A DNA stretch of 32,000 nucleotides from Nitrosomonas europaea (GCF_900167395.1 NZ_FUWK01000022.1:1-32000); one strand, 5' to 3'; shown: positions 450 to 25,895, numbered from the stretch's first letter. Notes: a model not told the origin generated them from the sequence alone. Numbers and translations: made by a program.

Positions 450-1127
450 TTACTCAGTGACATCACCATAATACTTTTCCCCGATCCGTATTTTTTCTCT
501 GCCATGCTCCACTCGCCATTTGTTGGTATCTCGCAACGAATAAGCGCAGCCACAGTATTCCTGCATATAGAATTTCTCCCGTTTGCTGATTTCCAGCATG
601 CGCGCAGAACCTCCTTTTTTGCGCCAGTTATACGTCCAATAAGTGATCCCCGGATATTGCGCTGCTGCTCTGACACCACTGTCGTTGATCTGATCCATGT
701 TTTTCCAGCGGGAAATACCCAGCGAGCTGGAAATGACATCGAATCCGTTTTCATAGGCATATAAAGCCGTACGCTCAAACCGCATGTCGAAACACATGGT
801 GCAACGGATTCCGCGTTCAGGTTCCATTTCCATTCCCTTTGCCCGTTTGAACCAGTCATCCATGTCATAATCAGCATCGATAAACGGGATACCATGCTTC
901 TCGGCAAAACGGATATTTTCATCCTTGCGTAAATCGTATTCCTTGCGCGGATGGATATTCGGGTTGTAAAAAAAGATGGAAAAATCGATTCCGGAAGCAA
1001 CGATGGCTTCCATGACTTCACCCGAACAGGGTGCGCAGCAGGAGTGCAGCAGTAACTTTTTACCGTTCTCCGGCAGTTCCAGTTTTTCACGTTCCATTTT
1101 CAATTTACCCGCAACACAGTTATTCAT
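450..1127 (-). CDS. queH: Epoxyqueuosine reductase QueH (DUF208 family)
   Basis: 225 aa. It has the characteristic [11 protein letters not shown] motif near the N-terminus, conserved Cys residues ([13 protein letters not shown]), and a typical length. The alternative start at 1097 (MEREK...) has a weaker RBS than 1127. Confidence 0.85.
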
Positions 1128-1239
1128 TGATTTTCAACCTTCTTCCGACTTATCCGGGACAGGCTTTCACTCCGGCATCCGGTTTTTCCAGACAATCCAC
1201 AACACTATTATAGACCCGGGAGTCTGTAAAACTCCCTGA

Positions 1240-1248
1240 TGATAGAAT
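1240..1248 (+). promoter_or_regulatory. Candidate extended -10 promoter element (TGaTAGAAT) for the ATPase-PIN-ligase cassette
   Basis: TGATAGAAT lies 38 nt upstream of the ATG at 1286. No good -35 is present, but the TGn extension could compensate. A perfect inverted repeat GGGAGT-N7-ACTCCC (1218-1236) lies where a -35 would be. Confidence 0.3.
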
Positions 1249-1285
1249 CGACAGAAAACCATCATAGAACTTCAATCAGAAGATC

Positions 1286-2575
1286 ATGTTCACTTCATTG
1301 AGACTGACCCACTTCAAAGCCTGGCAAGACACCGGCATGATTACGCTGAAACCAGTTACCGTTTTGCTGGGCACCAATTCATCAGGTAAATCCTCACTTA
1401 TCCAGAGCCTGCTGCTGTTGAAACAAACGGTGCAATCTCCGGATCGTTCGATCCACCTCAACCTGGGTGGAGATGAAATCAGTGATTTGTTCGATTTTGG
1501 CCATTTCGATGAGGTAATAAAACACGGTACATCTTCTCCGCGCGAGTTCTCGATCACATTTACCTTCCGGACTGCCGGACAATCACGAATAAACAGCGGC
1601 GAGTTTTCCTGCGGCTATCGGCAAACGGCAACTGGCGTCACTGCGATTCAGGAACTGGTATTGTCCGCTGCTGAACATCGTTTCCGCGCGATACGGCGAG
1701 AAAAGGGAAGCTACGCAATCTTCACTGATGATGAAACCCGACCGCGCGCCAAAGGCGAGCAGCTTGCACCGGAGCGTTCCGTTGCACTCCCCGCCGCCGC
1801 CATCGTCGCGCTGGGCAGCGCTGGCGCTCTCGCTGAAGATATTAGTCTTGCCATCCGGCGCGAACTGGAAAATATCTGCTATCTGGGCCCGCTTCGACGC
1901 AAACCGGAACGTGATTACGTATGGAACAAAACGACTCCCGGTCAGATCGAGAGTGACGGTCACCGTGCCATGGATATACTGCTCTCCAGTGTACTGATCA
2001 AAAATGACAAACAGAATGAAATTCTGGATGAGGTTTCCTTCTGGCTGAACAGAATGAAAGTGGCAGAGAGGCTGGAAATCCGGCAGGTGGGCCGCTCCGC
2101 CCGCTACGAAATCGTGGTGCATCAGGGTGGAACCATCACCAATCTGCGTGATGTCGGCATGGGTGTAGCGCTGGTGCTGCCGGTACTGGTGGCAGGCTAT
2201 TTTGCTCCGGCAGGCAGTACCGTCATCCTGGAAGAACCCGAAGTGCATCTTCACCCGCTGGCACAAGCGGTACTGGCCGAATTTTTCGTGGCACTGAGCC
2301 GTTCACGCCGCATCCAGTTCATCGTGGAAACCCATTCGGAACATCTGTTCCGCCGCATGCAAACACTGATTGCGCGCAAAAACACCTCCGTCGAACAAAT
2401 TGCCCTGCTATTTGTGGAAAGTGCTGCGGGGAATGCGGCATTGCGCAGGCTGGAAGTCGATGAATTCGGCCGGGTGAGCAACTGGCCGCAATACTTCTTT
2501 GGCGATGCACTGGGTGAAACACGCGAACAGGCGCGATTGATGCACACTCGCCATCAGGAGCAGCACAGAAAATGA
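1286..2575 (+). CDS. ABC/SMC-like AAA ATPase (AAA_15/AAA_21 type) with DUF3696-like C-terminus; no fused nuclease domain
   Basis: 429 aa. Motifs: Walker A GTNSSGKS (K35, nt 1388-1390), YLGPLR, signature-like DVGMGVALVLPVLV, Walker B TVILEEPEVHLHP, H-loop ETHSEH, and a C-terminal NWPQYFFGD tail typical of DUF3696 proteins. The stop overlaps the next start (ATGA, 2572-2575). Confidence 0.85.
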   Translation: MFTSLRLTHFKAWQDTGMITLKPVTVLLGTNSSGKSSLIQSLLLLKQTVQSPDRSIHLNLGGDEISDLFDFGHFDEVIKHGTSSPREFSITFTFRTAGQSRINSGEFSCGYRQTATGVTAIQELVLSAAEHRFRAIRREKGSYAIFTDDETRPRAKGEQLAPERSVALPAAAIVALGSAGALAEDISLAIRRELENICYLGPLRRKPERDYVWNKTTPGQIESDGHRAMDILLSSVLIKNDKQNEILDEVSFWLNRMKVAERLEIRQVGRSARYEIVVHQGGTITNLRDVGMGVALVLPVLVAGYFAPAGSTVILEEPEVHLHPLAQAVLAEFFVALSRSRRIQFIVETHSEHLFRRMQTLIARKNTSVEQIALLFVESAAGNAALRRLEVDEFGRVSNWPQYFFGDALGETREQARLMHTRHQEQHRK

Positions 2576-3114
2576 AACCGCGTTATGTGGTGGACACCAA
2601 TGTGCTGATCACCGCCAGTGTGGCTGATCCGGTTGCCCCAAAGGACATCGACGCGACACCGCAGGATCCTGCACTCAGATTTCGGGTGTGGCAATGGCTG
2701 GTCGAATTTGAAAGCAGTCCGGCACGACTGGTGCTCGATTCCGCCGGTAAAATCAAGGAAGAATACGATCGCAAGCTCGGATTCAACGATTACGGTATTC
2801 AGGTCGTAATCCACAAATGGAGCATGGCGGCAGTGGATAATGTGGATGTGCAATACGATACGGACGGCCATGCTGTGCTGCCACCGCCGCTGGATTCAGT
2901 GGTCCACGATCTGGCCGACCGGAAAATGGTTGCCGCTGCACTGGAAGCGCAAAAATGCCACGGCGAGAGTGCGATCGCCTTCGCCGGTGATACTGACTGG
3001 CATGACTGGGAACAAACGCTGATACAAGCGGGGCTTTCTATCGAACCCATTATTGAAGGCTGGTCACGCGCAAAACATGCAGAGAAAGCACACAGAAAAC
3101 AAAACCATGACTGA
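2572..3114 (+). CDS. PIN-like (PIN_3-like) domain protein, predicted metal-dependent ribonuclease
   Basis: 180 aa. The N-terminal YVVDTNVLI contains D8 (nt 2593-2595), and a central acidic stretch reads KIKEEYDRKL. HDLADRKMVAAALEA and AFAGDTDW match the later acidic PIN motifs (D..D..hhA.A and t.D.D). It has 4-bp and 8-bp overlaps with its two neighbours. Confidence 0.7.
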   Translation: MKPRYVVDTNVLITASVADPVAPKDIDATPQDPALRFRVWQWLVEFESSPARLVLDSAGKIKEEYDRKLGFNDYGIQVVIHKWSMAAVDNVDVQYDTDGHAVLPPPLDSVVHDLADRKMVAAALEAQKCHGESAIAFAGDTDWHDWEQTLIQAGLSIEPIIEGWSRAKHAEKAHRKQNHD

Positions 3115-3805
3115 TTTTTTCCGTTTCCCCAATACTCCTCACCTGCTCTGGCTGGGACAAGGCCAGCCCAGAGATGACAAGATTCTATCCGATGCCGAAA
3201 TAGCGGCCTTGCTGCAGGATGAAGTGCTGATCGAGGAAAAACTGGATGGCGCCAACCTGGGCATTTCGCTGGATGAACATGGCGAGCTGCGCGCCCAGAA
3301 TCGCGGCCAGTATCTGCCACAACCTTTTTCCGGCCAGTTTTCCCGCCTGAACAGCTGGCTGGGCCAGCACGGAGAAATCCTCAAACACACTCTGACACCG
3401 GAGATGATTCTATTCGGCGAATGGTGTGCCGCCCGGCATTCGCTCGACTATAACAAGCTGCCTGACTGGTTTCTGTTGTTCGACGTTTACGACCGGGAAG
3501 CAGGCAAGTTCTGGAGTGTGGAGCGGCGCAACCAGCTCGCTCAGAAATTGAATATCACCACCGTACCGCTGCTCAAACGCACAAAGATAACGTGCAACCA
3601 GCTCGTCCAGCTGCTCGATGATGCACAAAGCCGTTACCGCAGTGGCAAGGTCGAAGGTATCGTCATTCGCTGTGATTCGCCTCTCTGGTGTGAAAGCCGG
3701 GCGAAACTGGTCAACCGGGAATTTGTTCAGGCTATCGAGGATCACTGGCGCAGCCGGTCAATCGAGTGGAATCTGGTGCACGCCGGATCAGTAAAACGCT
3801 CATGA
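3107..3805 (+). CDS. ATP-dependent RNA ligase family protein, nucleotidyltransferase domain only (Pfam RNA_ligase/Rnl2-DraRnl-like)
   Basis: 232 aa from the ATG at 3107, which overlaps the PIN stop as ATGACTGA. The track ORF from 3053 is an in-frame upstream extension inside the PIN gene. Motif I is EEKLDGAN (adenylylation Lys45, nt 3239-3241), followed by FGEW, EGIVIR (motif IV-like) and AKLVNREF (motif V-like Lys). Confidence 0.8.
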   Translation: MTDFFRFPNTPHLLWLGQGQPRDDKILSDAEIAALLQDEVLIEEKLDGANLGISLDEHGELRAQNRGQYLPQPFSGQFSRLNSWLGQHGEILKHTLTPEMILFGEWCAARHSLDYNKLPDWFLLFDVYDREAGKFWSVERRNQLAQKLNITTVPLLKRTKITCNQLVQLLDDAQSRYRSGKVEGIVIRCDSPLWCESRAKLVNREFVQAIEDHWRSRSIEWNLVHAGSVKRS

Positions 3806-3861
3806 CGGCCATCGGCCTTGTGTGATGATAAAAACCGGGGTCAGCTATCGGGGAGAATGAT

Positions 3862-4236
3862 GTGTCGGATTTGAAAGATCCAAGAGTGCTGTTTGCTGCC
3901 GAACGGACCTTACTTGCCTGGAACCGGACCAGTTTGTCTCTCATTGCATTTGGATTCGTGGTGGAACGTGCAGGCAAACTGGTACGTGCCATTTCGCCCG
4001 GAATCATCGGCCCGGACCAGCTGGCAGCCATGTTCTGGCTGGGTCTGGCATTCATTGTTCTGGGTGCCATTACCTCAGTCTATTCTGCCCGCCAGTACGC
4101 GGTTATTCTTAAAACACTGACACCAGATGAATTCCCGCCCGGTTATGCGGCAAAATGGGGGCTGCTGGTCAATCTGGCAGTAGCAATACTCGGGCTGATA
4201 CTGGCCCTGGCACTCTGGTGGTGGCGTTTACATTAA
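3862..4236 (+). CDS. DUF202 (YidH-like) small inner-membrane protein
   Basis: 124 aa, GTG start with a GGGGAG RBS. It has the ERTLLAWNRTSLSLIAFG signature of DUF202 and three hydrophobic helices. Confidence 0.8.
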   Translation: MSDLKDPRVLFAAERTLLAWNRTSLSLIAFGFVVERAGKLVRAISPGIIGPDQLAAMFWLGLAFIVLGAITSVYSARQYAVILKTLTPDEFPPGYAAKWGLLVNLAVAILGLILALALWWWRLH

Positions 4237-4560
4237 CCATCCATGTCCAGCATTCGCACCGTGATCATCCTGTTTATCCTTGCCGGGTTCGTCCGGATCA
4301 CAGGAAAGTGGAGCAACCCGTTTGCGCCCCCGGCCAGAACATAGCTGTTTCTTAACCGGCCGGCGCTGACAAGCGGGCGCATCACGGGTATGCTACTTCC
4401 GCGCACTGCAAACCGGCGATGCCTCCAGGATGGTGCCGGCGAGCGAGACAAAACACGATTTTCGGCTCTACACCCCCGGTCACACACTTTGTGCTCTTGC
4501 CTGCTGCATCGTCGAGTCAAGCTGCCGGCCTTATTCATTTTGAAGCTCATTGCACCAGAT

Positions 4561-6024
4561 TTAATCCACTTCGCTCAACGCAATTCCCAAAGCCCTGGCA
4601 ACGCCTTCACCATAAGCACGATCCGCCTTCAGACAGTTGGTGATATGCCGAATCTGAATTTCCCGTGGTGCCTCTCCAATGGAACGAGCGGTATTGTCAA
4701 ATAGCACTTGTTGCTGCGAGGAATTCATGAGCCGGAATAAATTACCCGGCTGAATATAGTAATCCTCGTCTACTCGGTGATTCCAATGTGCAGCCGCGCC
4801 TTCCAGCGTTAACGGAGGTTCTGCATATTCAGGCTGCTGCTGCCATTCCTGGTAACTATTGGGCTCGTATCCCAGGGTACTACCCTGATTGCCATCAACC
4901 CGCATGGCGCCGTCACGATGATAATGATGGAAAGGGCAGCGGGGGGCGTTAACCGGGATCTGATAATGATTGACACCCAGGCGGTAACGCTGCGCATCCC
5001 CATAGGAAAACAAGCGCCCCTGCAACATTTTGTCTGGTGAAAAACTGATTCCCGGCACGACACTGGCTGGATTGAACGCAGCCTGCTCGACCTCAGCAAA
5101 GTAATTCTCCGGATTGCGATTCAATTCCATCACACCAACTTCGATCAGCGGATAGTCTTTGTGCGGCCAGACTTTGGTCAGGTCAAACGGATTATAGGGA
5201 AGACTGGCTGCATCGCTTTCCGGCATGATCTGCACAAATAATGTCCAGCGCGGGAATTCACCATTTTCAATGCTTTCGTACAGGTCACGCTGATGACTTT
5301 CCCGATCCTTGCCGACCAGTGCTTCCGCCTCGGCATCGGTCAGGTTTTTGATACCCTGCTGTGTTCTGAAATGAAATTTCACCCAGTAACGTTCCTGTCG
5401 GGCATTGATGAAACTGAAAGTATGGCTGCCGAAACCGTGCATGTGCCGATAGGTTGCAGGCAGACCGCGGTCACTCATGACGATGGTAATCTGATGCAAT
5501 GCTTCAGGAAGCAGCGTCCAGAAATCCCAGTTGTTGCGCGCACTGCGCAAATTGGTTCGTGGATCGCGTTTGACGGCATGATTGAGATCCGGAAATTTCA
5601 GCGGATCACGCAGAAAAAATACCGGCGTATTGTTGCCAACCAGATCCCAGTTACCTTCTTCAGTATAAAACTTGATGGCAAAACCGCGAATGTCACGCTC
5701 TGCATCGGCAGCGCCCCGTTCTCCCGCCACCGTGGAAAAGCGAACGAACAGGTCGGTTTTTTTCCCGATCTGAGAAAAAATATTTGCCCGCGTGTAACGA
5801 GTGATATCGTGCGTCACTGTAAAGGTACCGTAGGCACCGGATCCCTTAGCGTGCATCCGCCGCTCCGGGATCACTTCACGATCGAAATGAGCAAGTTTCT
5901 CGAGAAACCAGATATCCTGTAGCAACATCGGGCCGCGCGGACCGGCAGTCATGACATTCTGATTATCCGCTACGGGTGCACCGGCACTGGTGGTCAGCTT
6001 CTTTTTGGCATCATCCATTTTCAC
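4561..6024 (-). CDS. katA: Monofunctional heme catalase (small-subunit type)
   Basis: 487 aa. Canonical catalase sequence: [22 protein letters not shown] (distal His), [22 protein letters not shown], and proximal [14 protein letters not shown] (Tyr ligand). Confidence 0.97.
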
Positions 6025-6081
6025 TCTCCTTCAAGTAGTAATGTTCATACCCCTCTTTTCACCTTTCTTTCCAGTGTGTAT

Positions 6082-7416
6082 TTACTCCCCCCCTTTGTTC
6101 TCACCGAAAGCTGATTTACTTACTATCCGGCGGAACCGTCTGATTGCGAAAAACACGATGGTCACGATGACCGGTATCGCGATACCGGTCATCAGTTCGA
6201 TATCGATATTCAGCCCTGCCGCCTTGGCGGCTTTCAGCCCGTAACCGGTAATACCGAGCAGGTAGTAACTCAGTACGACCACTGACAGGCCCTCCACTGT
6301 CTCTTGCAGACGCAGTTGCAGATACGCCCGGGTATCCATCGACCTGAGCAGATCCCGGATTTGCGATTCCATCGAGATATCCACCCGGGTGCGCAGCATC
6401 GAAGTCGCCCGTTCTACACGTAGTGATAGTGTTTCAAGTTTGGACCAGACCAGATCAAAGGTACTCATGGCTGAGGTAACCCGCTGTTTTCTGAATTCGT
6501 ACAACATCTGCAGTCCCTCGATACGCTCTTCACGCAATTCTGTGATTCGCTGCTGCATGATCGTGTGATATGTCTGCGATGCACTGAAACGATGACTGGA
6601 CTGAGCAGAGATTCTTTCGATTTCTGTAGCCAATGCAGTCAGTTTTACCAGTAGCAGCTGTTCATCTTCGATAGAGTTGGGCGCGATATTGGTTGATATC
6701 AGCTCTGTCAGTTGATCGCCATATCTTTCCAGCTGGGGAATGATTTCGCGCGTCATGGTCATCGGCAGAATCGCCAGCATACGATAAGTCTCGATCTCGA
6801 GCAGACGCTGTACCAGCCTGCCAACCTGGCGGCTGCGCAAGTTATCATCATGAATCAGAAAACGGGTAAATCCATCCGGATGAATCTGGTTATCACTCCA
6901 GACACTGGCGCTCCCTGCCGAAACCTTGGAGCCGATCACCGTGTTCGAGGAAAACAGGGAGGACAGCTCACTCATGCTGCGGCTGGGGCGCCTGCGGTCT
7001 TCCAGTGCAATATGCGTAGCGACCAGCACTTCTCCTGGCAGTTTCTCCAGCCATTCCGGAGGAACATGGGCGATGGCAGGCTGAGCAAAAGGTACCTCGA
7101 ACGGGCCTTCACTATAGAAAGTATAAGTGGAATATTCCGTATGCCGTTCCCAACGCAATTGAAAACCACCCAGTTCGACACTCAACTGATCGAAGGCGCC
7201 ATTGAGCATCCGGATACCGAAATGTTCACAAATCTGGACGATCAGCTCACGCTCCCTGTTCACCCACTGTCGGTCTGAAAGCAAGACCAGATGAGAAAGC
7301 TGTAACGGGATATTGACCAGTTCATAAACATCTGCATTCAGCTCGGTATGCAGTAACCGTCGCTCGGAATACTCCGGCAGACCCAGCGGCCCGTATTTCA
7401 ACAAATTGTCGGTCAT
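6082..7416 (-). CDS. DUF3422 domain membrane-anchored protein of unknown function
   Basis: The start is taken at MTDNLLKYGPLGLP (ATG complement at 7414-7416). The track ORF extends to 7542 but would then overlap the upstream TauE gene. It has the RWERHTEYSTYTF motif and two C-terminal TM helices, as in DUF3422 proteins. Confidence 0.8.
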   Translation of the reverse strand: MTDNLLKYGPLGLPEYSERRLLHTELNADVYELVNIPLQLSHLVLLSDRQWVNRERELIVQICEHFGIRMLNGAFDQLSVELGGFQLRWERHTEYSTYTFYSEGPFEVPFAQPAIAHVPPEWLEKLPGEVLVATHIALEDRRRPSRSMSELSSLFSSNTVIGSKVSAGSASVWSDNQIHPDGFTRFLIHDDNLRSRQVGRLVQRLLEIETYRMLAILPMTMTREIIPQLERYGDQLTELISTNIAPNSIEDEQLLLVKLTALATEIERISAQSSHRFSASQTYHTIMQQRITELREERIEGLQMLYEFRKQRVTSAMSTFDLVWSKLETLSLRVERATSMLRTRVDISMESQIRDLLRSMDTRAYLQLRLQETVEGLSVVVLSYYLLGITGYGLKAAKAAGLNIDIELMTGIAIPVIVTIVFFAIRRFRRIVSKSAFGENKGGE

Positions 7417-7453
7417 AATCTGAAAAATTTTTCTAATAATTGAAAATCCGGTA

Positions 7454-8254
7454 CTAATTCCATAAATCCAGCAACAACTTGGTTCCCAGCAAATAGAGCA
7501 AACCTGCAAAAATTTTTCTGAGTAACGCTGCCGGCAGAACATGTGCCGCTCTGGCCCCCAGCGGTGCTGTCACCGTACTCGCCAACCCCACCGTGATCAG
7601 AGCAGGCAGATAAATATAGCCCAGTGCATAATCCGGCAGCGGCTGTGTCAGCAGCAGACCATTGATGGCATAGCCCGCCGCACTGGCCAGCGCAACCGGA
7701 AACCCGACAGCGGCTGCCGTACCGATGGCATGGTGCAACCGGATCTGGCAAGCAGTGAGAAACGGTACCGTCAGTAATCCCCCGCCAATTGCCACCAGGC
7801 TGGATAACGCACCGATCACGCTGCCGGCAGCAAACATACCGGCTTTTCCCGGCAGAACATGACCCGTACCCGGCTTGAGATTGAGCCACATTTGCGTGGC
7901 TGCGAAATAGATGAACAAAACGAAAATGATACCCAATATCCGGCTCGACAACTGGCCGGCCAGAGTGGAACCAGCCAGCGCACCCGCAATGATTCCAGGC
8001 GTAATATAGCGCACGATCCACCAGTTCACGGCACCATGGGCATGGTGAGCACGCAGGCTGGAAATCGCGGTCAGGGTAATGATCGCTGTCGTCGTTCCCA
8101 GTGCGATATGCAGAATATGGTCAGCCGGAAAACCCAGAGACATGAAAACGGAAGCCAGTATCGGCACCATCAGCAGACCGCCGCCAATGCCCAGCAATCC
8201 CGCAAAGAAACCGACTGCACTCCCTGTCAGCAGGTAAACCGGCCATGCTTCCAT
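7454..8254 (-). CDS. TauE/SafE family sulfite/anion exporter (DUF81)
   Basis: 266 aa polytopic membrane protein with duplicated GxxxGLLGIGGG-type motifs (GLLGIGGGLLMVP, LVAIGGGLLTVP). Confidence 0.9.
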   Translation of the reverse strand: MEAWPVYLLTGSAVGFFAGLLGIGGGLLMVPILASVFMSLGFPADHILHIALGTTTAIITLTAISSLRAHHAHGAVNWWIVRYITPGIIAGALAGSTLAGQLSSRILGIIFVLFIYFAATQMWLNLKPGTGHVLPGKAGMFAAGSVIGALSSLVAIGGGLLTVPFLTACQIRLHHAIGTAAAVGFPVALASAAGYAINGLLLTQPLPDYALGYIYLPALITVGLASTVTAPLGARAAHVLPAALLRKIFAGLLYLLGTKLLLDLWN

Positions 8255-8333
8255 ACTTGGGATATCTCACTGGTGATTTCAGCTATCCTGATGCACAAGC
8301 ATGAAAATATCAGGAACAGGCAAGTGCATGGCA

Positions 8334-8795
8334 TCACGACTGCAGCTTTGCTTCGATGAATTTCCATTCCGATGGATCGACGGGAGTAATGGACAGCCGG
8401 TTACCTTTCTGCAGGATACGCATACCGGCCAGTTCAGGATAGCTGCGCAGCTCCCTAAGGGAAAGCAACCGGGTTTTACGAAGAAACCGGACTTCGACAT
8501 TGAACCAGCGCGGATTCTCGCGCGTCGATTTTGGGTCGAAATATTTGCTGGCCGAGTCGAACTGTGTTTCATCCGGATAAGCAAGCCGTGAAACTTCGAC
8601 GACGCCGGCAATACCTGGTTCGGGGCAGCTCGAATGATAGAAGAAAACCAGATCTCCAGGCTGCATCTGGTTGCGCATGAAATTACGCGCCTGATAGTTG
8701 CGCACACCATCCCAAGGTACGGTCTGCCCTGGCCGAGCAGCAAGGTCATCGATACTCACTTCCGACGGCTCTGATTTCATCAGCCAGTAACGCAT
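8334..8795 (-). CDS. EVE (PUA-like, DUF55) domain protein
   Basis: 153 aa. MRYWLMKSEPSEVSIDDL...WDGVRNYQARNFMR...GDLVFFYHSS is the typical EVE-domain N-terminus. Confidence 0.85.
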   Translation of the reverse strand: MRYWLMKSEPSEVSIDDLAARPGQTVPWDGVRNYQARNFMRNQMQPGDLVFFYHSSCPEPGIAGVVEVSRLAYPDETQFDSASKYFDPKSTRENPRWFNVEVRFLRKTRLLSLRELRSYPELAGMRILQKGNRLSITPVDPSEWKFIEAKLQS

Positions 8796-8845
8796 ATTTT
8801 TACGAATATGAATAGGGAGAGAACTGAAACTACTAAAAGAAAAGA

Positions 8846-9027
8846 GGGGTCCCCGCGAATGCCGTCAGGTTGTTATCTTGAACCACAGGTTCAAGAGTGG
8901 CCGCCTGTCGGCCGCATCAGGCATGCTCCACGAGAGAGTACGCACAACAGCGACCATTGACTGGCAGCCAGATACAACGAATTGGTTCAAAGAATACAAA
9001 CCTTGACAAACACCGCAGGGATTAAAT
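8846..9027 (-). ncRNA. ssrS: 6S RNA (SsrS), RNA polymerase-sigma70 regulator
   Basis: It lies immediately downstream of zapA on the same strand, which is the conserved proteobacterial position. The minus-strand sequence ...GAGCATGCC...CTTGAACCTGTGGTTCAAGATAACAACCTGACGGCATTCGCGGGGACCCC parallels E. coli 6S ...GAGCAUGCUC...CCUUGAACCAAGGGUUCAAGGGUUACAGCCUGCGGCGGCAUCUCGGAGAUUCCC. The 5' TCCCTGCGG...GTCAAGG pairs with the 3' CCTGAC...CGCGGGGA to form the closing stem. Length is about 182 nt. Ends are approximate (+/- 5 nt). Confidence 0.8.
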
Positions 9028-9084
9028 CTGTTGTAATTGCTCTGGCACACAATACACGCCGCGCTAAATTATTCGATTTTATTC

Positions 9085-9399
9085 TTATGAATTCTTATAA
9101 ATGCCCTGGTCGGTAAGCGCGTCACTCACCCTGCACTCCAGCAACTCGATTCTACGCTTAAATTCATTCATGTCAAAACCACGCTGTGAACGGATACTGA
9201 GCAATTCATGGGTCATGCTGATGGCGGCGGCAATGGCAATCTGTTCCGTTCCGGCAATTTTTCCTGCAGATTTTATCTCCTGCATTTTTCTGTTGAGACA
9301 GGAAACGGCGAGCAGCAACTCTTCACGTTCTTCCCCGGGACAATGGATACGAAATTCCCGCCCCATTACGGTTACATTCAAAACAGTATCTTTGTTCAC
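9085..9399 (-). CDS. zapA: Cell division protein ZapA
   Basis: 104 aa. The VTVMGREFRIHCPGEEREELLLAVSCLNRKMQEIK pattern is typical of ZapA, and the gene has conserved synteny with ssrS. Confidence 0.9.
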   Translation of the reverse strand: MNKDTVLNVTVMGREFRIHCPGEEREELLLAVSCLNRKMQEIKSAGKIAGTEQIAIAAAISMTHELLSIRSQRGFDMNEFKRRIELLECRVSDALTDQGIYKNS

Positions 9400-9400
9400 T

Positions 9401-9631
9401 TCAACCCTCGGGCAGATTATTCAGTAAAACCTTGAGGCGTTCGGCTGCGGTTTGCATCCGCTCGGCAAGCTGACGGTTTACCGCCTCCGCATTTTCAAGC
9501 AGACGATACAATTTGGCATTTTCCTCACGAGTTTCCTGATACAACCTGATCAGCAAGCCGATCTTGTCTTCCAGCGACTTCAATTCATCATCCATCAGCG
9601 ATTCCGTTCCCACCGGCACGGAATGAAGCAC
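9401..9631 (-). CDS. ZapB-like coiled-coil protein (TIGR02449-type) upstream of zapA
   Basis: A 76-aa heptad-rich coiled coil (LEDKIGLLIRLYQETREENAKLYRLLE). Its stop is 1 nt from the zapA start. The true start may be the internal Met at 9595. Confidence 0.7.
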   Translation of the reverse strand: MLHSVPVGTESLMDDELKSLEDKIGLLIRLYQETREENAKLYRLLENAEAVNRQLAERMQTAAERLKVLLNNLPEG

Positions 9632-9707
9632 TTTATCCGCTGATCATATCCGTTGCATGGCAGCACCACCACAAAGAGCACATACAACCCTTGCTGATTT
9701 TTTATCA

Positions 9708-11291
9708 TTATCGTGACAAGATCGTGTCAACGGCCTGCGGCAGTATTTCAGGGTAATCCCGGCTGAAGTGCAGTCCGCGACTCTCGTGCCGCAGCATTGC
9801 GCTCCGAACGATCAGATCGGAAGTACACACGAGATTGCGCAGTTCGAGCAAATCACTGGTCACCCGGAAATTGGAATAGTACTCACCGATTTCCTCACTC
9901 AGCAGCCTGATGCGGTGTTGCGCCCGCTGCAAACGTTTGCTGGTACGCACGATACCTACATAATTCCACATAAAACGGCGCAACTCGTCCCAGTTATGGG
10001 AAATCACGACTTCCTCGTCGGCATCGGTCACACGGCTTTCATCCCAGTCCGGTAACAGCAGATCTGGCGCAGGAGAGCGAACCAGAATATCCTCGACCGC
10101 CGAAAGACCAGTGACCAGACATTCCAGCAAAGAATTACTGGCCAGGCGATTGGCGCCGTGCAGACCGGTATGCGCCGTTTCACCGATGGCATACAGATTG
10201 TCGAGATCAGTCCGTCCGCATTGATCGGTCATGATCCCGCCACAGGTATAGTGAGCTGCCGGGACGACCGGAATAGGCTCACGAGTGATGTCGATGCCCA
10301 GTTCCAGACAACGCTTGTAAATAGTTGGAAAATGCTGCACCAGAAAATCGGCTGGCTGGTGGGAAATGTCCAGAAATACACAATCCAGCCCGCGTTTTTT
10401 CATTTCGAAGTCGATTGCACGCGCCACGATGTCACGCGGAGCAAGTTCGGCCCGTTCATCATGCCGAAGCATGAAACGCTCACCATCGGGCAGCTTCAGT
10501 ATACCCCCCTCCCCCCTCACTGCTTCAGTGATCAGAAAGGACTTGGCATGCGGATGATACAAGCAGGTGGGATGAAACTGGACAAATTCCATATTGGCAA
10601 CACGGCACCCCGCACGCCACCCCATGGCAATACCATCCCCGGTAGATACATCGGGATTAGTGGTATAGAGATAAACTTTACCCGCACCGCCGGTGGCCAG
10701 AATCGTATTACGTGCCGCAATCGTGCGCACTTTTCCGGCGCGGATATCGAGCACATAAGCGCCGTAGCAGCGGTTATTTTCCCCGGCATGAGACAATTTC
10801 TCGCTGGTGATCAGATCGATTGCAATGTGGTGCTCCAGCACGGTGATATTCGGATGTTGTGCTGCCTGTCTGGTCAGTGTAAGTTGCACCACTTTACCAG
10901 TGGCATCACCAGAATGAATGATGCGACGCACACTATGACCACCCTCACGAGTCAGGTGATAACCAGTTTCATTGTGATCATCCCGCGTAAAATCGACCCC
11001 TCTGGCAATCAGCCATCTGACAGCCTGTGGACCGTTTTCCACGATATGACGGGTCATGGCTTCGTTACACAAACCTGCACCGGCGATCAGCGTATCGCGG
11101 ATATGTGCCTCCGGTGAATCTTCGATCGACAGCACGGCGGCAATCCCCCCCTGCGCCCAGGCACTGGAGCTGTCATGCAATGTCCGCTTGGTCACCAGCG
11201 CGACCTTTTGGGTTTCTGCGAGATTCAGGGCAAGTGTCAGCCCGGCCAGACCGCTGCCAATGATCAGTGCATCGAAACGAAGTGGTTGCAT
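9708..11291 (-). CDS. nadB: L-aspartate oxidase
   Basis: 527 aa. It has an N-terminal FAD-binding motif [16 protein letters not shown], plus HYTCGGI and [15 protein letters not shown], as in NadB/succinate dehydrogenase flavoprotein-family proteins of NadB length. Confidence 0.96.
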
Positions 11292-17473: not shown

Positions 17474-18619
17474 ATGTTCAGCTCACGCAGAAAAATCATT
17501 CTTTTCCTGATCATCCTGTTTACGAGTGTCATTTACGGTTATTTCTCACTACAGGGGGAATCCGGAAAAATACGGTATACAACCCGGGCTGCCGACCAGG
17601 GAGATATCGTGCGCACGATATCCGCCAATGGCACGCTCACCCCGCTGGAACTGGTCGATATCGGCACACAGATCTCCGGCAGGGTGATCGAGCTGTTCGC
17701 CGATTTCAATGATCAGGTAAAAACCGGCCAGATCCTGGCAAAACTCGATCCGGCTCTGCTCAATGCGCAGCTGCAGCAATCCGAGGCCAGTCTGAAAAGT
17801 GCGCAGACTGCCTTATCGGTCACCATCAATAAAGCCAACCGCAGCCGTAACCTGATTGAAAAAGGCTTCCTCTCGAAAGAAGCAATGGATGAAGTCAAAG
17901 AATTACTCGATTCTGCACGGGCACAGGTCATCGTCAGCCAGGCACAGGTTGCACGTGATCAGGCCAACCTGGATTACAGTATCATCCGCTCACCCATTTC
18001 CGGTGTCGTCGTCGCCCGGAACGTCAATATCGGGCAGACCGTTGCCGCCAATTTCCAGACACCCACCCTGTTTCAGGTCGCGCGTGATCTGAAACAGATG
18101 CAGATCAATATCAGTGTGGCAGAAGCAGATATCGGTCAGATCCATACCGGCCAGACGATGGTATTCACCGTGGATGCGTTCCAGGATCGCGAATTCTCTG
18201 CCATCGTCAAGCAGATACGCCTCAACCCCACGGTTCAGGAAAACGTGGTGACATACAATGTCATCGCAACCGTCATCAATGAAGAGGGCACTCTGCTGCC
18301 CGGGATGACGGCCAACGTGCGTTTCATCGTCAACGAAAAAACAGAAGTATTGCGTGTACCCAATGCCGCCCTGCGCTATAAACCCAGTCTGGAAGAACTG
18401 ATCGCCACAGCGGAAACACAACCTGGCAAACGGTTGCTCTACCGGCTGGAGGGCAATCGGCCGGTAGCGATCAGTGTAACCACCGGCATTACCGACGGTA
18501 ATTTCACTGAAATTCTCTCCAATGAACTCAATGTGAACGATCCGCTCATCATCGAAGAAATGATCGGTAAAAAACAGGATAAGTCGGCTGCCAGCAATTT
18601 TAGATTCAGGATGTTCTGA
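17474..18619 (+). CDS. macA: Efflux periplasmic adaptor (membrane fusion protein), MacA-like
   Basis: 381 aa. It has an N-terminal TM anchor, a coiled-coil hairpin (LLNAQLQQSEASLKSAQ...VSQAQVARDQANLDYS), the IRSPISGVV lipoyl motif, and a beta-barrel domain. Its stop overlaps the ABC ATPase start (TGATG). Confidence 0.85.
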   Translation: MFSSRRKIILFLIILFTSVIYGYFSLQGESGKIRYTTRAADQGDIVRTISANGTLTPLELVDIGTQISGRVIELFADFNDQVKTGQILAKLDPALLNAQLQQSEASLKSAQTALSVTINKANRSRNLIEKGFLSKEAMDEVKELLDSARAQVIVSQAQVARDQANLDYSIIRSPISGVVVARNVNIGQTVAANFQTPTLFQVARDLKQMQINISVAEADIGQIHTGQTMVFTVDAFQDREFSAIVKQIRLNPTVQENVVTYNVIATVINEEGTLLPGMTANVRFIVNEKTEVLRVPNAALRYKPSLEELIATAETQPGKRLLYRLEGNRPVAISVTTGITDGNFTEILSNELNVNDPLIIEEMIGKKQDKSAASNFRFRMF

Positions 18620-19371
18620 TGATCCATCCCGGCGGTTCCAGTGAACCTTTGATTGAGGTGGAAAAGCTCTGCAAGATCTACCGGCTGGGTAACCACGCCG
18701 GTACCTCCCTCAACCTGCAGGTACTGTTCGATGTCAGTTTCACGATACGGCGTGGGGAGTTTGTCGCAATCATGGGGCATTCCGGCTCCGGAAAATCCAC
18801 TCTGATGAACATACTCGGCTGTCTGGATACGCCTACCAGCGGCCACTACCGGCTAGCAGGACACGATGTGTCAACCCTTTCCGGCAATCAGCTCGCCAGC
18901 GTGCGCAACCGGCAAATCGGTTTCGTATTCCAGGGGTTCAATCTACTCAGGCGCATGACTGCGCTGGATAACGTGGCCATTCCATTACTATACGCAGGTT
19001 ACAGCCGGGCAGAAAGTCGTCGCCGGGCAATGTCGCTGCTGCAGCAAACCGGGCTGGAAAAGTTTGTCATGCATCAACCCGGCCAACTTTCCGGGGGACA
19101 GCAACAGCGTGTCGCCATCAGTCGGGCACTGATCAATCAGCCGCAACTCATCCTTGCGGATGAACCTACCGGCAATCTGGATACCCAAACCAGCCACGAA
19201 ATCATGCAATTGTTCGACCGCCTCAATCGTGAAGAAGGCATGACGATCGTCATCGTTACGCATGAAGAAGACATTGCTGCCTGGACTCGCCGTCTGATCC
19301 GGCTCAAGGACGGGCGAATCATTGAAGACAGGCCGATAGCCAAACCAGTCGTTCCTCTTTCCAAATCATGA
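18619..19371 (+). CDS. ABC transporter ATP-binding protein (MacB/LolD-type)
   Basis: 250 aa. Motifs: Walker A GHSGSGKST, signature LSGGQQQR, Walker B LILADEPTGNLD, H-loop VTHE. Confidence 0.93.
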   Translation: MIHPGGSSEPLIEVEKLCKIYRLGNHAGTSLNLQVLFDVSFTIRRGEFVAIMGHSGSGKSTLMNILGCLDTPTSGHYRLAGHDVSTLSGNQLASVRNRQIGFVFQGFNLLRRMTALDNVAIPLLYAGYSRAESRRRAMSLLQQTGLEKFVMHQPGQLSGGQQQRVAISRALINQPQLILADEPTGNLDTQTSHEIMQLFDRLNREEGMTIVIVTHEEDIAAWTRRLIRLKDGRIIEDRPIAKPVVPLSKS

Positions 19372-20591
19372 ATTTACTGACTATCATCGGTGAGGCCACG
19401 CGGGCACTGCAGACCAACCGCCTGCGAACTGCGCTCACCATGCTCGGCATGATCATCGGCGTGGCTGCAGTGGTACTGATGCTATCCATCGGACAGGGCG
19501 CACAAACCAGCATCAACAGTGCCATTGCCTCAATGGGCAGCCATCTGCTGATCGTCATGCCCGGCGCAACTTCATCCGGCGGACTGCGCTGGGGCAGCGG
19601 CAGTGTCAAAACGCTGACCGTACAGGATGCGCACGCGATTGCAGAATTGCCCATGGTCGATGCAACCGCACCGGTGATTTCAGGTACCGCACAGCTCAAC
19701 TACGGTGCCAACAACTGGAGCACCGTGCTGACAGGCGTCACCCCGGACTATTTTTCCGTCAACAACTGGGAAATGGCCGATGGCGAGATCTTTACCGAAG
19801 GAGATTTACGCTCCGGCACCCGCGTAGCCGTGCTGGGCCAGATCACAGCAAACAGCTTGTTCGGAAACGAAGATCCAGTAGGAAAGATTGTCCGGATTGC
19901 CAACCGGCCGTTCACAGTTGTCGGCGTTCTGGTTGCCAAAGGCCAAAGCCTTTCAGGACGTGACCAGGATGATAACGTATTCATTCCGCTCACCACCGCA
20001 CAACGGCAGATCATCGGCAACCAGTTCCCCGGATCGATCAATCACATGACAGTTCGGGCAAAAACGGCAGACAGCATGGAAGCCGCCGAAGCAGAAATCA
20101 CCCGCCTGCTGCGTCAGCGCCACCGTATTAGCGCCCATATGGAAAACGATTTCACCGTTCGCAATCTGACTGCACTCGCTTCCGTGGCAAGCAACACTGC
20201 CAGGGTCATGGCATGGATGCTGGGCGCAGTTGCCTCGGTTTCTCTCCTGGTGGGAGGTATTGGCATCATGAATATCATGCTGGTATCCGTCACGGAGCGT
20301 ACTCGTGAAATTGGCATCCGTATGGCAATCGGTGCAAATCAGCGGATGATTCTCACTCAGTTCCTGCTGGAATCGCTGATGATCTGTATCCTGGGTGGGA
20401 TCACCGGTATCGCCTTGGGAATCGGGGGAGCCTGGCTGGCCAGCCGAATTGCCGAACTCGAAATTGTGATCACACCGGGAATGATCGCCCTGGCATTCTC
20501 TTTTTCCTCGATTATCGGCATTTTCTTTGGCCTGTATCCCGCCCGGAAAGCTGCTGCACTCAAACCGGTGGAAGCCCTGCGCCACGAATGA
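19368..20591 (+). CDS. ABC transporter permease, MacB periplasmic-core plus FtsX domains
   Basis: 407 aa. It has an N-terminal TM helix, a large periplasmic domain, and a C-terminal FtsX-like three-TM region (VGGIGIMNIMLVSVTERTREIGIRMAIGA). It overlaps the ATPase gene by 4 bp. Confidence 0.9.
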   Translation: MNLLTIIGEATRALQTNRLRTALTMLGMIIGVAAVVLMLSIGQGAQTSINSAIASMGSHLLIVMPGATSSGGLRWGSGSVKTLTVQDAHAIAELPMVDATAPVISGTAQLNYGANNWSTVLTGVTPDYFSVNNWEMADGEIFTEGDLRSGTRVAVLGQITANSLFGNEDPVGKIVRIANRPFTVVGVLVAKGQSLSGRDQDDNVFIPLTTAQRQIIGNQFPGSINHMTVRAKTADSMEAAEAEITRLLRQRHRISAHMENDFTVRNLTALASVASNTARVMAWMLGAVASVSLLVGGIGIMNIMLVSVTERTREIGIRMAIGANQRMILTQFLLESLMICILGGITGIALGIGGAWLASRIAELEIVITPGMIALAFSFSSIIGIFFGLYPARKAAALKPVEALRHE

Positions 20592-23905: not shown

Positions 23906-24249
23906 TGGAGCTGGTTCTGTCTCTCGGTATCGGCATACTGGTTGGATCAGGTGTATGGCTGCTGCTGCGTCCTCGCACCTACCAGGTCATCATCGGGCTG
24001 GGACTGGTCTCTTATGCCGTCAACCTGTTCATTTTCAGCATGGGACGGCTGGTGACAGACAAACCGCCGGTCACGCAGGCAGGTGCTCAAATTGATCCGA
24101 CAACATTTGCCGATCCGATACCTCAGGCACTGGTACTGACAGCCATTGTCATCGGTTTTGCCACGACGGCACTCTTTCTGGTTGTCCTGCTTGCCTCACG
24201 CGGTCTGACGGGCACCGATCATGTTGATGGCAAGGAACCCGACCGATGA
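23905..24249 (+). CDS. mrpC: Cation/H+ antiporter subunit C (NuoK-like)
   Basis: 114 aa with three TM helices. The start overlaps the mrpA stop (TAATG). Confidence 0.9.
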   Translation: MELVLSLGIGILVGSGVWLLLRPRTYQVIIGLGLVSYAVNLFIFSMGRLVTDKPPVTQAGAQIDPTTFADPIPQALVLTAIVIGFATTALFLVVLLASRGLTGTDHVDGKEPDR

Positions 24250-25895
24250 ATTTATCTCCGGAACACCTTGTCATTGCACCGGTTCTGATTCCATTCATCG
24301 CCGGAGTGCTGCTGCTTTTTCTCGATGATCGTGCACGGCACGTCAAAGCCTTCGTATCCGTTCTATCCACCATTGTATTGCTGGTGATATCGATCCTGCT
24401 TCTGTGCATTGTGCATACGGATAACAGTGCGAATGAAGACAGGATCGCGGTCTACCTGCTGGGTAACTGGCCACCCCCATTTGCCATCAACCTGGTGCTG
24501 GATCGCCTGTCATCGATGATGCTGGTTCTGACCGCGATGCTCGCTCTACCTTCTCTGGTATTTTCACTCGGGCGCTGGCACAAGGCCGGTGTCCATTTTC
24601 ATACCCTGTTTCTGTTGCTGCTGATGGGGTTGAATGGCGCATTCCTGACCGGAGATCTGTTCAATCTCTTCGTATTCTTTGAAGTTATGCTGGCAGCATC
24701 CTACGGTCTGGTATTACACGGATCAGGATTATTGCGGGTGAAGGCGGGGTTACACTACATTGCCATCAACCTTGTCGCTTCACTGCTGTTTCTGATCGGA
24801 GTAGCTCTGATTTACAGCGTTACCGGCACGCTCAACATGGCCGATCTGGCCATACGTATCCCGCAAATCAATGAGGCAAACCGCACGATGCTGGAATCTG
24901 GGGCAGCCATTCTGAGTGTGGCCTTTCTCATCAAGGCAGGTATGTGGCCATTGAATTTCTGGTTGCCCACGACCTACGCCGCAGCACCAGCGCCGTCAGC
25001 AGCCATTTTTGCCATCATGAGTAAAGTCGGCATTTATGTGCTGCTGCGTCTGTCACTGCTGTTTTTCGGGAGTGACCCTGGTTTTCCGGAAAGTCTGGGA
25101 GCACAGATACTGCTTTATGGCGGTCTGGCGACGATCAGCTTTGGCACTGTCGGGGTACTTGCTTCACAGACACCGGGACGGTTTGCCGGTTTTTCAGTGC
25201 TGATCTCATCCGGTACACTGCTGGCAAGCATCGGTCTGGTACAAACCGAAGTAACTGCCGGTGCCCTGTTTTATCTCGCCAGCTCCACACTGGCGATCAG
25301 CGCACTGTTCATGCTCATCGAACTGGTTGAAAGAGGGCAGAATATGGCAGCAAGCGTTCTGGCCGTTACCATGGAAGCATTCGGTTATGACGATGAAGAA
25401 ACGGAAAACGAGGAAATCATCGGAGTGGCCATTCCAAGAACGATTGCCGTGCTGGGCACATGCTTTGCCGCTTGCACCATTCTGCTGGCCGGTTTGCCGC
25501 CCCTTTCGGGTTTCATTGCCAAATTTGTCATCCTCAACGCCCTGTTCAGTCCCGGTGAATCAGGGCAGATGCACTTCATTCCCGCCACTCTCTGGTGGTT
25601 CCTGGCGCTGCTCATTTTTTCCGGGCTGGCTACCCTGATCGCCATGAGCCGCTCCGGCATACGTACTTTCTGGGCACCCCCGGTAGATACGGCACTGCCA
25701 CGGGTACTGCTGATCGAAATCGTACCGGTTGCCGCCTTGCTGTGCATGACACTCGTACTGACCATACAGGCGGGACCGGTGATGCGTTTCATGGAAGCAA
25801 CCGCAAACAGCCTGCACGCACCACGGCCATACATTGAAGGGGTCATGAAGACACAGAGTGCGGTATTACCACAGCCGATGGAAACGACAGAATGA
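24246..25895 (+). CDS. mrpD: Cation/H+ antiporter subunit D (NuoM/N-like)
   Basis: 549 aa polytopic protein with DLFNLFVFFEVMLAASY and KAGMWPLNFWLP motifs. It has an ATGA overlap with mrpC. Confidence 0.93.
   Translation: MNLSPEHLVIAPVLIPFIAGVLLLFLDDRARHVKAFVSVLSTIVLLVISILLLCIVHTDNSANEDRIAVYLLGNWPPPFAINLVLDRLSSMMLVLTAMLALPSLVFSLGRWHKAGVHFHTLFLLLLMGLNGAFLTGDLFNLFVFFEVMLAASYGLVLHGSGLLRVKAGLHYIAINLVASLLFLIGVALIYSVTGTLNMADLAIRIPQINEANRTMLESGAAILSVAFLIKAGMWPLNFWLPTTYAAAPAPSAAIFAIMSKVGIYVLLRLSLLFFGSDPGFPESLGAQILLYGGLATISFGTVGVLASQTPGRFAGFSVLISSGTLLASIGLVQTEVTAGALFYLASSTLAISALFMLIELVERGQNMAASVLAVTMEAFGYDDEETENEEIIGVAIPRTIAVLGTCFAACTILLAGLPPLSGFIAKFVILNALFSPGESGQMHFIPATLWWFLALLIFSGLATLIAMSRSGIRTFWAPPVDTALPRVLLIEIVPVAALLCMTLVLTIQAGPVMRFMEATANSLHAPRPYIEGVMKTQSAVLPQPMETTE

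Follow-up and report, generated by a model that had tools for sequence, protein, structure and literature searches.

Why would a bacterium encode, side by side in one operon, a protein predicted to cut RNA and an enzyme predicted to rejoin it, together with an ATPase of the type that serves as sensor or scaffold in anti-phage defence? The question is raised by three genes at 1286-3805 in a 32,000-nucleotide stretch of Nitrosomonas europaea DNA (GCF_900167395.1, NZ_FUWK01000022.1:1-32000; this whole stretch is referred to as the window, and positions are counted from its first letter). The first gene, g1 (1286-2575, + strand), encodes a 429-amino-acid ABC-type (OLD/AriA/NsnB-like) ATPase with a C-terminal DUF3696 tail, the predicted sensor/regulator subunit; the second, g2 (2572-3114, + strand), encodes a predicted divergent PIN_3-like nuclease of 180 amino acids; and the third, g3 (3107-3805, + strand), encodes a minimal ATP-dependent RNA ligase of 232 amino acids from its ATG, which consists of the nucleotidyltransferase domain only. 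The three genes are translationally coupled and conserved as a unit in several phyla: the g2 start overlaps the g1 stop as ATGA at 2572-2575, and the g2 stop and the g3 start overlap within ATGACTGA at 3107-3114. By homology, the locus belongs to a known ATPase-PIN defence family, HEC-03 (Hma-embedded candidate 03), as a variant that carries a ligase. An earlier reading made from the sequence alone (the sequence-only reading) had already proposed the three same-strand open reading frames, both overlaps and the key motifs of the encoded proteins (K35 in GTNSSGKS, YLGPLR, LEEPEVHLHP, ETHSEH, VVDTNV and EEKLDG); the reading frames were confirmed at these positions, the overlaps were confirmed by direct reading, and all of the motifs are present.

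A ligase-bearing relative of HEC-03

The ATPase is the component with the clearest affinities. In Pfam, g1 matched AAA_21 (1.3e-22), AAA_15 (4.8e-20) and, at its C terminus, DUF3696 (6.7e-12), and its best models in PADLOC-DB were the HEC-03 ATPase (7.4e-82), PDC-M55A (2.8e-59) and NsnB (4.5e-58); the AriA, GajA and Old models also matched, with scores far below that of HEC-03. Among 65 orthologues, the Walker A lysine K35, YLGPxR, DxGxG, EEPExHLHP, ETHSEH and the tail W400-A416 are at least 97% conserved, which upholds the assignment of g1 as an ABC/AAA_21-type ATPase with a DUF3696-like tail. The tail is among the most conserved parts of the protein and residues ~75-195 (the ABC Insert 1 region) are poorly conserved in the same orthologues, as would be expected if the tail were an unchanging docking site for the effector and the insert a sensor that diversifies. 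In two metagenomic proteins, P0124 (494 amino acids) and P0167 (315 amino acids), an ATPase segment runs straight into the PIN domain, but in one of them the half of the ATPase from Walker B to the tail is missing and in the other the PIN N terminus. They were rejected as candidates for functional ATPase-PIN fusions, being probably deletion derivatives or assembly artefacts, and because each lacks essential parts of one partner they were not used as evidence of interaction.

The identity of g2 required indirect evidence, because the protein itself had no Pfam or NCBIfam match at E values up to 0.1 and no PHROG match. The PADLOC model of the HEC-03 PIN protein matched residues 5-160 of its 180 (2.2e-7). 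Searching 1.84 billion representative proteins exhaustively with HMMER gave 277 matches to the family at E values up to 1e-3, and in an alignment of 79 diverse representatives (26-69% identity) the residues D8-T9-N10-V11, D56, E64-Y65, D113, D116, K118 and D142-W143 of g2 were invariant or nearly so. Pfam PIN_3 was matched by 38 of the 79 (best E value 9.8e-5) and PIN_5 by none of them; the PIN_3 link of g2 is a transitive one. An AlphaFold (AF2) model built on the 79 representatives (predicted local distance difference test score (pLDDT) 96.9, predicted template modelling score (pTM) 0.92) has alternating beta and alpha elements, and six of its seven top matches in the PDB were PIN-like proteins, at weak E values of 0.04-0.12 and template modelling (TM) scores of ~0.3-0.5: HARP protein-only RNase P at the top, the AF0591 PIN protein, VapC20, a VapBC complex, the SMG6 PIN domain and an NYN domain. 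A first model from a 20-sequence alignment (pLDDT 72.8) gave no meaningful PDB matches and was discarded, and the family profile found nothing significant among PDB sequences. On this transitive evidence and modest fold match, we take g2 to be a divergent PIN_3-like nuclease whose D-E-D-D acidic set (D8, E64, D116 and D142) is intact, so that the PIN call and the acidic motifs of the sequence-only reading are sustained, if by a roundabout route. According to the paper describing the Menshen system, PIN domains act as metal-dependent RNases through a D-E-D-D catalytic site.

In g3, by comparison of sequences, an ATP-dependent RNA-ligase-type nucleotidyltransferase that is essentially a bare catalytic domain can be recognized securely. 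The protein matched Pfam RNA_ligase (PF09414) at 2.8e-37, and ligase motifs I (KxDG), Ia, III, IIIa, IV and V (K45/D47/G48, R66, E105, F125/D126, E183/G184 and R198/K200) are all present and at least 97% conserved in 71 orthologues, as the proposal of a minimal RNA ligase with a KxDG lysine had it. These orthologues also have a conserved N-terminal segment of their own, FFRFPxTxHxxWL...PRxDK. The nearest solved structures are the Rnl3 ligases of P. abyssi (PAB1020, E value 2e-4) and M. thermautotrophicus; g3 reaches 39.5 bits against the TIGR01209 model, whose cutoff is 136.9, and its 232 amino acids leave no room for the N-terminal, dimerization or C-terminal domains of Rnl3. A longer, TTG-initiated form of g3 was rejected: the orthologues align from the ATG, and a 232-amino-acid protein 100% identical to g3 is present in public databases with the annotation 'RNA ligase family protein [Nitrosomonas]'. 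At this size g3 is an unusually small RNA ligase and may be useful as an enzyme.

HEC-03, which was described by Payne et al. 2024 (bioRxiv 10.1101/2024.01.29.577857) and is included in PADLOC-DB, is a pair, an ABC ATPase and a VapC-like PIN protein, that was found embedded within Hma systems. It protects E. coli from phages, both genes are required, and it could not be induced because of its toxicity (Payne et al. 2024). In the tested system, from P. cichorii, a gene for a 461-amino-acid 'DUF3696 domain-containing protein' is followed by an overlapping gene for a 157-amino-acid protein; the cassette has the same order, with a DUF3696-tailed ABC ATPase gene and then an overlapping small PIN-like gene. 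In BLASTP, g1 is 30% identical to the tested ATPase WP_025259138.1 (E value 8e-57), and g2 is 23% identical to the tested PIN protein (E value 3e-4) in a collinear alignment that indicates a distant relation; V[DE]TNV, DEY, DxxDRK and DTDWH are common to both PIN proteins. PADLOC-DB assigns the subunit letters the other way round from the preprint (PDLC04147/PDLC04148): the 458-position model 'HEC-03B' is the ATPase and the 159-position model 'HEC-03A' is the PIN protein, whereas the preprint calls the ATPase HEC-03A and the PIN protein HEC-03B.

The difference lies in the third gene. HEC-03 has two genes only, whereas the cassette has a conserved RNA ligase gene as well. The preprint of Payne et al. 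2024 and its supplements make no mention of a ligase, and no PF09414 gene or g3-like sequence was found within 7 kb in eight canonical HEC-03 loci from two Pseudomonas clusters (L081-L088, with the HEC-03 gene at 7001-7483). These canonical loci have mobile contexts, either a Pf-type filamentous prophage (Zot, coat B) with a HigB-like toxin/HTH partner nearby or a DUF927 island. The sequence-only reading had put the triad forward as a candidate undescribed system and had expected PADLOC to name no complete system, but the claim that it is undescribed is wrong: g1 and g2 both match HEC-03 models, this two-gene cousin was validated in 2024, and the architecture had been predicted in silico in 2016. 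As summarized in a survey of PIN domains (Matelska et al. 2017, PMC5499597), Burroughs and Aravind (NAR 2016;44:8525) predicted PIN/RNA-ligase/ATPase/HNH operons in which the ligase neutralizes the nucleases.

Co-conservation and the PIN-ligase core

Co-conservation of the three genes in other genomes had been set beforehand as the test on which the proposal could fail. One genome per species was scanned, which gave 80 loci encoding g2 relatives, and 71 of these were informative in that they had enough flanking DNA on both sides. The order g1-g2-g3 was found in 57 of the 71, in several phyla (L011, in which g3 begins 1 nt inside the g2 match, is counted among these triads); a further 11 have g2-g3 without the ATPase, 3 have g1-g2 without an adjacent orthologous ligase, and in none of the 71 does the PIN gene stand alone. 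The hosts are Beta-, Gamma- and Alphaproteobacteria, a Cyanobium, and metagenome-assembled genomes of Verrucomicrobiota, Holophagaceae, Acidiferrales and Desulfobulbales. Accidental adjacency of three unrelated genes, a reading that could appeal to nothing beyond the housekeeping context of the window, is excluded by this recurrence of one order with tight spacing across phyla and by the start-stop overlaps.

The two enzymes are more closely bound to each other than either is to the ATPase. An orthologous ligase is adjacent in 70 of the 74 loci with room downstream of the PIN gene (~95%), and only one of the 74 has no ligase at all, not even a remnant (L013, from Aeromonas cavernicola). In two other loci, a different PF09414 ligase of 219 amino acids, 25-28% identical to g3, lies within ~2 kb, divergent and upstream in one and downstream in the other (L051, 3870-4529, - strand; L069, 6723-7382, + strand). 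The nearness of this distant ligase makes both loci look like cases of ligase displacement rather than loss, and the replacement suggests selection for having some ligase nearby. The ATPase, by comparison, is present in 60 of the 71 informative loci. Its sequences fall into two deep classes that are 48% identical to each other, a split that g2 and g3 do not mirror. When the matrices of pairwise identity were correlated, r was 0.755 for g2 and g3, 0.34 for g1 and g2 and 0.38 for g1 and g3. The acidic residues of the PIN protein are intact in the ATPase-less, ligase-less and ligase-displaced loci alike.

Because the PIN and ligase matrices correlate well and that of the ATPase only weakly, and because PIN-ligase pairs persist, these comparisons identify the predicted nuclease and ligase as the conserved, co-evolving core of the module and the ATPase as a frequent but exchangeable partner. 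The near-obligate presence of the ligase, its replacement by a distant ligase and the existence of PIN-ligase pairs without an ATPase argue for a functional tie of the ligase to the nuclease, not to the sensor.

Genomic settings, proposed mechanism and rival explanations

In about 20 of the 80 loci, the triad follows a gene for an Eco57I/N6_Mtase protein of ~1300 amino acids, often with a start-stop overlap; matches to this methylase came from the PADLOC DrmMI model (2e-73) and from type IIG models. In six methylase loci a protein designated c20 precedes the methylase, and in L022 it matches the C-terminal end of the DpdE helicase model. An HNH_2 gene stands after the ligase in 13 of the 80 loci, and a GmrSD/HEC-06-like gene (L025), a UvrD-like gene (L010), a Schlafen-AlbA2 gene (L015) or an unassigned gene for a protein of ~410 amino acids (c30) can be inserted between the two; in L022, PDC-M27A/B-like genes follow the HNH gene. 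Because these intervening genes are unrelated, the HNH gene is suggested to belong to an outer system. The name Hma was not used for this outer system, which is described here by its domains, because the matches were to DrmMI and type IIG models and no Hma-named model was among the models listed. Examples of the methylase/triad/HNH_2 arrangement are L010, L015, L022, L025 and L059, in which the upstream part lies at ~600-4700 and the downstream part at ~7200-11200. The remaining 37 loci are mixed, with type I restriction-modification S subunits (four), an HsdR, YhcG-type nucleases, IS110 transposases and metabolic genes.

The setting of the cassette in the window is of another kind. It is flanked by queH on one side and by DUF202, catalase, DUF3422, TauE and 6S RNA genes on the other, and the arrangement queH/triad/DUF202-catalase is fixed in position in the window and about 10 other Nitrosomonas loci. 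The sequence-only reading had placed the cassette two genes from an insertion sequence (IS) element and had envisaged a defence island. Neither was borne out here: the neighbours are housekeeping genes, and no transposase family was found among the large open reading frames scanned across the 32-kb window. Its framing of the cassette as a conflict system nevertheless fits, given the homology of g1 and g2 to the validated HEC-03 and the related loci beside methylase, HNH and other defence-type genes.

From these elements a mechanism can be proposed. An oligomer of g1 would hold the PIN nuclease through the conserved DUF3696 tail, by homology and analogy with a model of NsnB and NsnC, and the variable middle insert would sense a phage cue, upon which the nuclease would be released or activated. 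The PIN protein would then cut cellular and/or phage RNA (tRNA, rRNA or mRNA), presumably leaving 3'-OH and 5'-phosphate ends. Such ends are the substrates of ATP-dependent RNA ligases (Rnl families), and the ligase could thus join them directly with no end-healing enzyme. Domain scans and the neighbouring genes revealed no kinase, phosphatase, Hen1 or RtcB gene in the operon, as would be expected if the ligase sealed PIN ends directly; the repair of PrrC damage by T4, by comparison, depends on both Pnkp and Rnl1. The ligase might mop up leaky cleavage, giving self-immunity and a higher firing threshold, or reverse the arrest after the threat has passed, or both. The idea of a ligase that undoes the damage of the nuclease is chemically coherent, metal-dependent nucleases being ones that leave 3'-OH/5'-P ends.

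We consider it reasonably probable that the cassette is a HEC-03-type conflict module. That the ligase reverses PIN damage is plausible, at somewhat less than even chances, and the combined statement, namely a chromosomal three-gene module of anti-phage type, related to HEC-03 and bearing a ligase that can reseal PIN cuts, is one to which we give about an even chance. A further proposal is more tentative and, in our judgement, somewhat doubtful: the PIN protein and the ligase may form a self-contained pair that cuts and rejoins RNA, the nuclease making a specific 3'-OH/5'-P break in a tRNA or rRNA and its dedicated minimal ligase reversing it, as a resettable switch of translation to which an interchangeable ATPase sensor has been added in most lineages. 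If this were true, it would amount to an immune system with an undo function and to reversible dormancy in place of suicide, and the ATPase-less pairs beside hrpB would run alone as an RNA-control device.

Several observations weigh against the proposed defence module. Canonical HEC-03 works without a ligase; we found no experimental work on any ligase-bearing member in the literature searched; and the PIN call leans on weak or indirect matches, with no Pfam match for g2 itself and Foldseek E values of at least 0.04. Other observations, several of which count against it as well, favour a role in housekeeping or stress-related RNA processing and repair, as a bacterial analogue of HARP-Rnl3 in which the PIN protein trims or processes a specific RNA or a damaged RNA end, the ligase rejoins or circularizes it and a Rad50/SMC-like ATPase, where there is one, tethers or recognizes the substrate. 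The neighbourhood of the operon in the window is one of housekeeping genes (queH, catalase and NAD genes) and keeps its synteny throughout the N. europaea/eutropha group of Nitrosomonas, and its upstream neighbour queH is a tRNA-modification gene. The 11 ATPase-less loci lie beside a divergent hrpB (RNA helicase) gene or near a gene for a PUA-SAM (rRNA-type) methyltransferase, in conserved positions, which fits RNA metabolism too. For a defence gene the g2 family is unusually well conserved (55-92% identity across phyla), and its tight co-evolution with the ligase would also suit such a role. The family had no match in 50,697 phage genomes, 72,556 plasmids and 2.9 million viral contigs (IMG/VR). 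Finally, HARP genes co-localize with ligase genes, and HARP is the top structure match of g2 and Rnl3 the nearest solved relative of g3, both weakly. We nonetheless regard this explanation as unlikely. The HEC-03 homologues of g1 and g2 make up a system whose anti-phage activity and toxicity have been demonstrated, at least one in four of the related loci stands beside methylase, HNH and other defence-type genes, and the patchy distribution across phyla looks driven by horizontal transfer; moreover, a tRNA that has been cleaved cannot be faithfully restored through nuclease trimming. The recurring flavour of RNA metabolism (queH, hrpB and the PUA-SAM methyltransferase) could be a coincidence, since none of the associations extends beyond one lineage; the hrpB and queH neighbours are single-lineage syntenies rather than independent associations.

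The persistence of PIN-ligase pairs without the ATPase, with catalytic residues intact, would also be expected of a selfish addiction module resembling a toxin-antitoxin system, in which the PIN protein is the toxin, the ligase an enzymatic or binding antitoxin and the ATPase optional, and which has no dedicated role in sensing phage. The ligase is almost never lost and a distant one stands in for a missing orthologue; PIN_3 proteins are typically toxins of toxin-antitoxin systems, as stated in the PIN survey (PMC5499597), and HEC-03 is toxic when induced. We judge this explanation improbable, since no DNA-binding antitoxin or autoregulatory feature was found, since the module is missing from the plasmids and phages searched, where addiction modules are common, and since the ATPase is present in most informative loci and is required in HEC-03. 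It also overlaps heavily with the defence module that we favour, as toxin-antitoxin modules are often defensive. A role at the level of DNA is more remote still: a PIN-like nuclease (compare the FEN/5'-nuclease branch) and the HNH protein would nick or cut DNA and the PF09414 enzyme would seal nicks, in aid of methylase-based restriction or as protection from it. The triad does often lie between a large N6-adenine methylase and an HNH_2 endonuclease, and several g3 homologues are annotated 'DNA ligase' in databases. Yet g3 belongs to PF09414, is nearest to Rnl3 RNA ligases and is without the OB domain of DNA ligases; the g2 relatives match VapC-type PIN_3 and not FEN-type families; neither a methylase gene nor an HNH gene is present in the window, in the other Nitrosomonas loci or in the ATPase-less loci; and the genes inserted before the HNH gene again suggest that it belongs to the outer system.

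Some features of these loci stand apart from the argument. The ATPase-less PIN-ligase pairs (L062-L064, L067, L070, L071, L075, L076, L079 and L080) come from Pseudohongiella-like and other gammaproteobacterial genomes, keep their catalytic residues and have g2 at ~6001-6530 in the full-length loci; L027, with hrpB downstream, and L060, with the PUA-SAM methyltransferase gene upstream, are grouped with them by context and carry full and partial g1 matches, respectively. Of the single promoter proposed upstream of g1, what stands is a candidate extended -10 element, TGATAGAAT (TGnTAGAAT form; 1240-1248, + strand, 38 nt 5' of the g1 ATG), for which the evidence is weak: a TA(G/A/C)AAT box occurs at the same offset in 4 of 7 aligned Nitrosomonas upstream regions, but a scan for the sigma-70 consensus upstream of g1 gave no match, the box at 1240-1248 included. 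Directly 5' of this box, at 1218-1236, lies a perfect 6-bp inverted repeat, GGGAGT-N7-ACTCCC, which is partly within a 9-bp insertion that is absent from six aligned Nitrosomonas relatives. The scan detected no terminator-like site 3' of g3. The divergent upstream neighbour queH (450-1127, - strand) encodes epoxyqueuosine reductase, which acts in tRNA anticodon modification; just past its 3' end and on the opposite strand lies a full-length psRNA2, a proteobacterial small RNA of Rfam (207-386, + strand, 137 bits). The 6S/SsrS RNA gene (8846-9024, - strand, 70.9 bits) fills a gap that would otherwise be suspect for an IS fragment. The window contains no tRNAs, and psRNA2 and 6S RNA, both outside the operon, are its only Rfam matches. 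The remainder of the window is unremarkable, with a MacAB-type HlyD/ABC/FtsX efflux operon (17474-20591) and a multisubunit Mrp/Mnh cation-proton antiporter operon (20987-27077) followed by glutathione S-transferase (GST) and GGDEF-EAL genes.

Comparison with known systems

Several known systems combine an ABC ATPase with an effector. In Menshen, NsnB is likewise an ABC ATPase with a DUF3696 tail, and in a structural model two such tails grip the PIN-like N-domain of its effector, NsnC; the Menshen paper regards PtuA-PtuB (Septu) and AriA-AriB (PARIS) as built on the same principle. The PIN-like domain of NsnC, however, is catalytically dead and is joined to a toxin domain, whereas g2 keeps its D-E-D-D set and has no extra domain. 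Menshen also has a gene for the ParB-DUF262 protein NsnA and no ligase, whereas the cassette, with queH and DUF202 as neighbours, has a ligase and no NsnA; membership in Menshen was rejected because this defining partner is absent. PARIS, Septu and OLD-Gabija share with the cassette an ABC ATPase as sensor or scaffold and a metal-dependent nuclease as effector, but their effectors are Toprim or HNH proteins, not PIN proteins, and they encode no ligase. Neither g2 nor g3 had a Toprim or AriB (DUF4435) match, and membership in PARIS was rejected for lack of the AriB partner. AriB itself is a Toprim tRNase whose two-metal chemistry leaves 3'-OH/5'-P ends. Most known immune systems made of an ATPase and a nuclease (PARIS, Septu, Gabija, OLD and HEC-03) are described as one-way, in that the nuclease fires and growth stops or the cell dies. 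A widespread ligase-bearing relative would open to experiment the old question of whether a host can itself reverse RNA damage of the abortive-infection type, and of how the self-damage of a leaky effector is limited.

With VapBC the cassette shares a PIN-fold, toxin-like nuclease, VapC20 and a VapBC complex being among the top structure matches of g2. A VapB-type DNA-binding antitoxin is absent, g2 being flanked by ATPase and ligase genes whose overlaps leave no room for one, and membership was rejected for want of this partner. The HARP-Rnl3 association is closer in the combination of activities: HARP, a PIN_5 protein-only RNase P, co-occurs and co-localizes with the RNA ligase Rnl3 (Seshadri and Gopalan 2025, PMC12153264), and a link between PIN_5 and RNA ligase is also given in the PIN survey (PMC5499597). 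A small PIN-like RNase is thus linked to an ATP-dependent RNA ligase in both cases. The g2 relatives, however, match PIN_3 and not PIN_5, g3 lacks the extra domains of Rnl3, and the HARP and Rnl3 genes are usually divergent, occur in extremophiles and have no ATPase. Membership was rejected on the missing PIN_5 match and on the score of g3 far under the TIGR01209 cutoff.

An RNA ligase also counters an RNA-cleaving nuclease in the conflict of T4 Pnkp and Rnl1 with the anticodon nuclease PrrC. In T4/PrrC, Pnkp-Hen1 and RtcAB, the breaker and the sealer are on opposite sides, whereas the cassette has both in one operon; in those systems, 2',3'-cyclic phosphate and 5'-OH ends need healing, whereas the cassette has no healing genes. 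RNA repair is a counter-weapon of the phage in T4/PrrC, whereas here the host would own both breaker and sealer.

HEC-03 remains the nearest relative. As Payne et al. describe for HEC-03, relatives of the cassette are also embedded beside helicase/methylase systems. In contrast to the mobile contexts of canonical HEC-03, however, the ligase-bearing clade is chromosomal and absent from phages and plasmids; its PIN proteins are only distantly related to those of HEC-03, and the anti-phage phenotype is known only for the P. cichorii system. With regard to the operons predicted in 2016, we infer from one sentence in PMC5499597 that the cassette belongs to the same family. That sentence describes operons that combine a nuclease gene with those of an ATP-grasp RNA ligase and an ATPase, which the cassette resembles through its transitively assigned PIN_3-type nuclease, and the components it lists fit the methylase-embedded loci found here. 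An HNH gene, which the list includes, is missing from the window, where DUF202 is the next gene, and from most loci. The 2016 work was purely computational, and its summary in the survey does not mention ATPase-less pairs or a pattern of co-evolution. The tight co-evolution of PIN protein and ligase, the exchangeable ATPase, the ~20 methylase-embedded loci and the absence from phage and plasmid collections are new here. A co-evolving PIN-ligase core, a swappable ATPase and ATPase-less pairs provide a natural dissection of sensor, effector and reset. As the architecture was, on the survey's account, predicted in 2016 and the two-gene cousin was validated in 2024, the value of the cassette beside these known systems lies in its mechanism and not in a new category.

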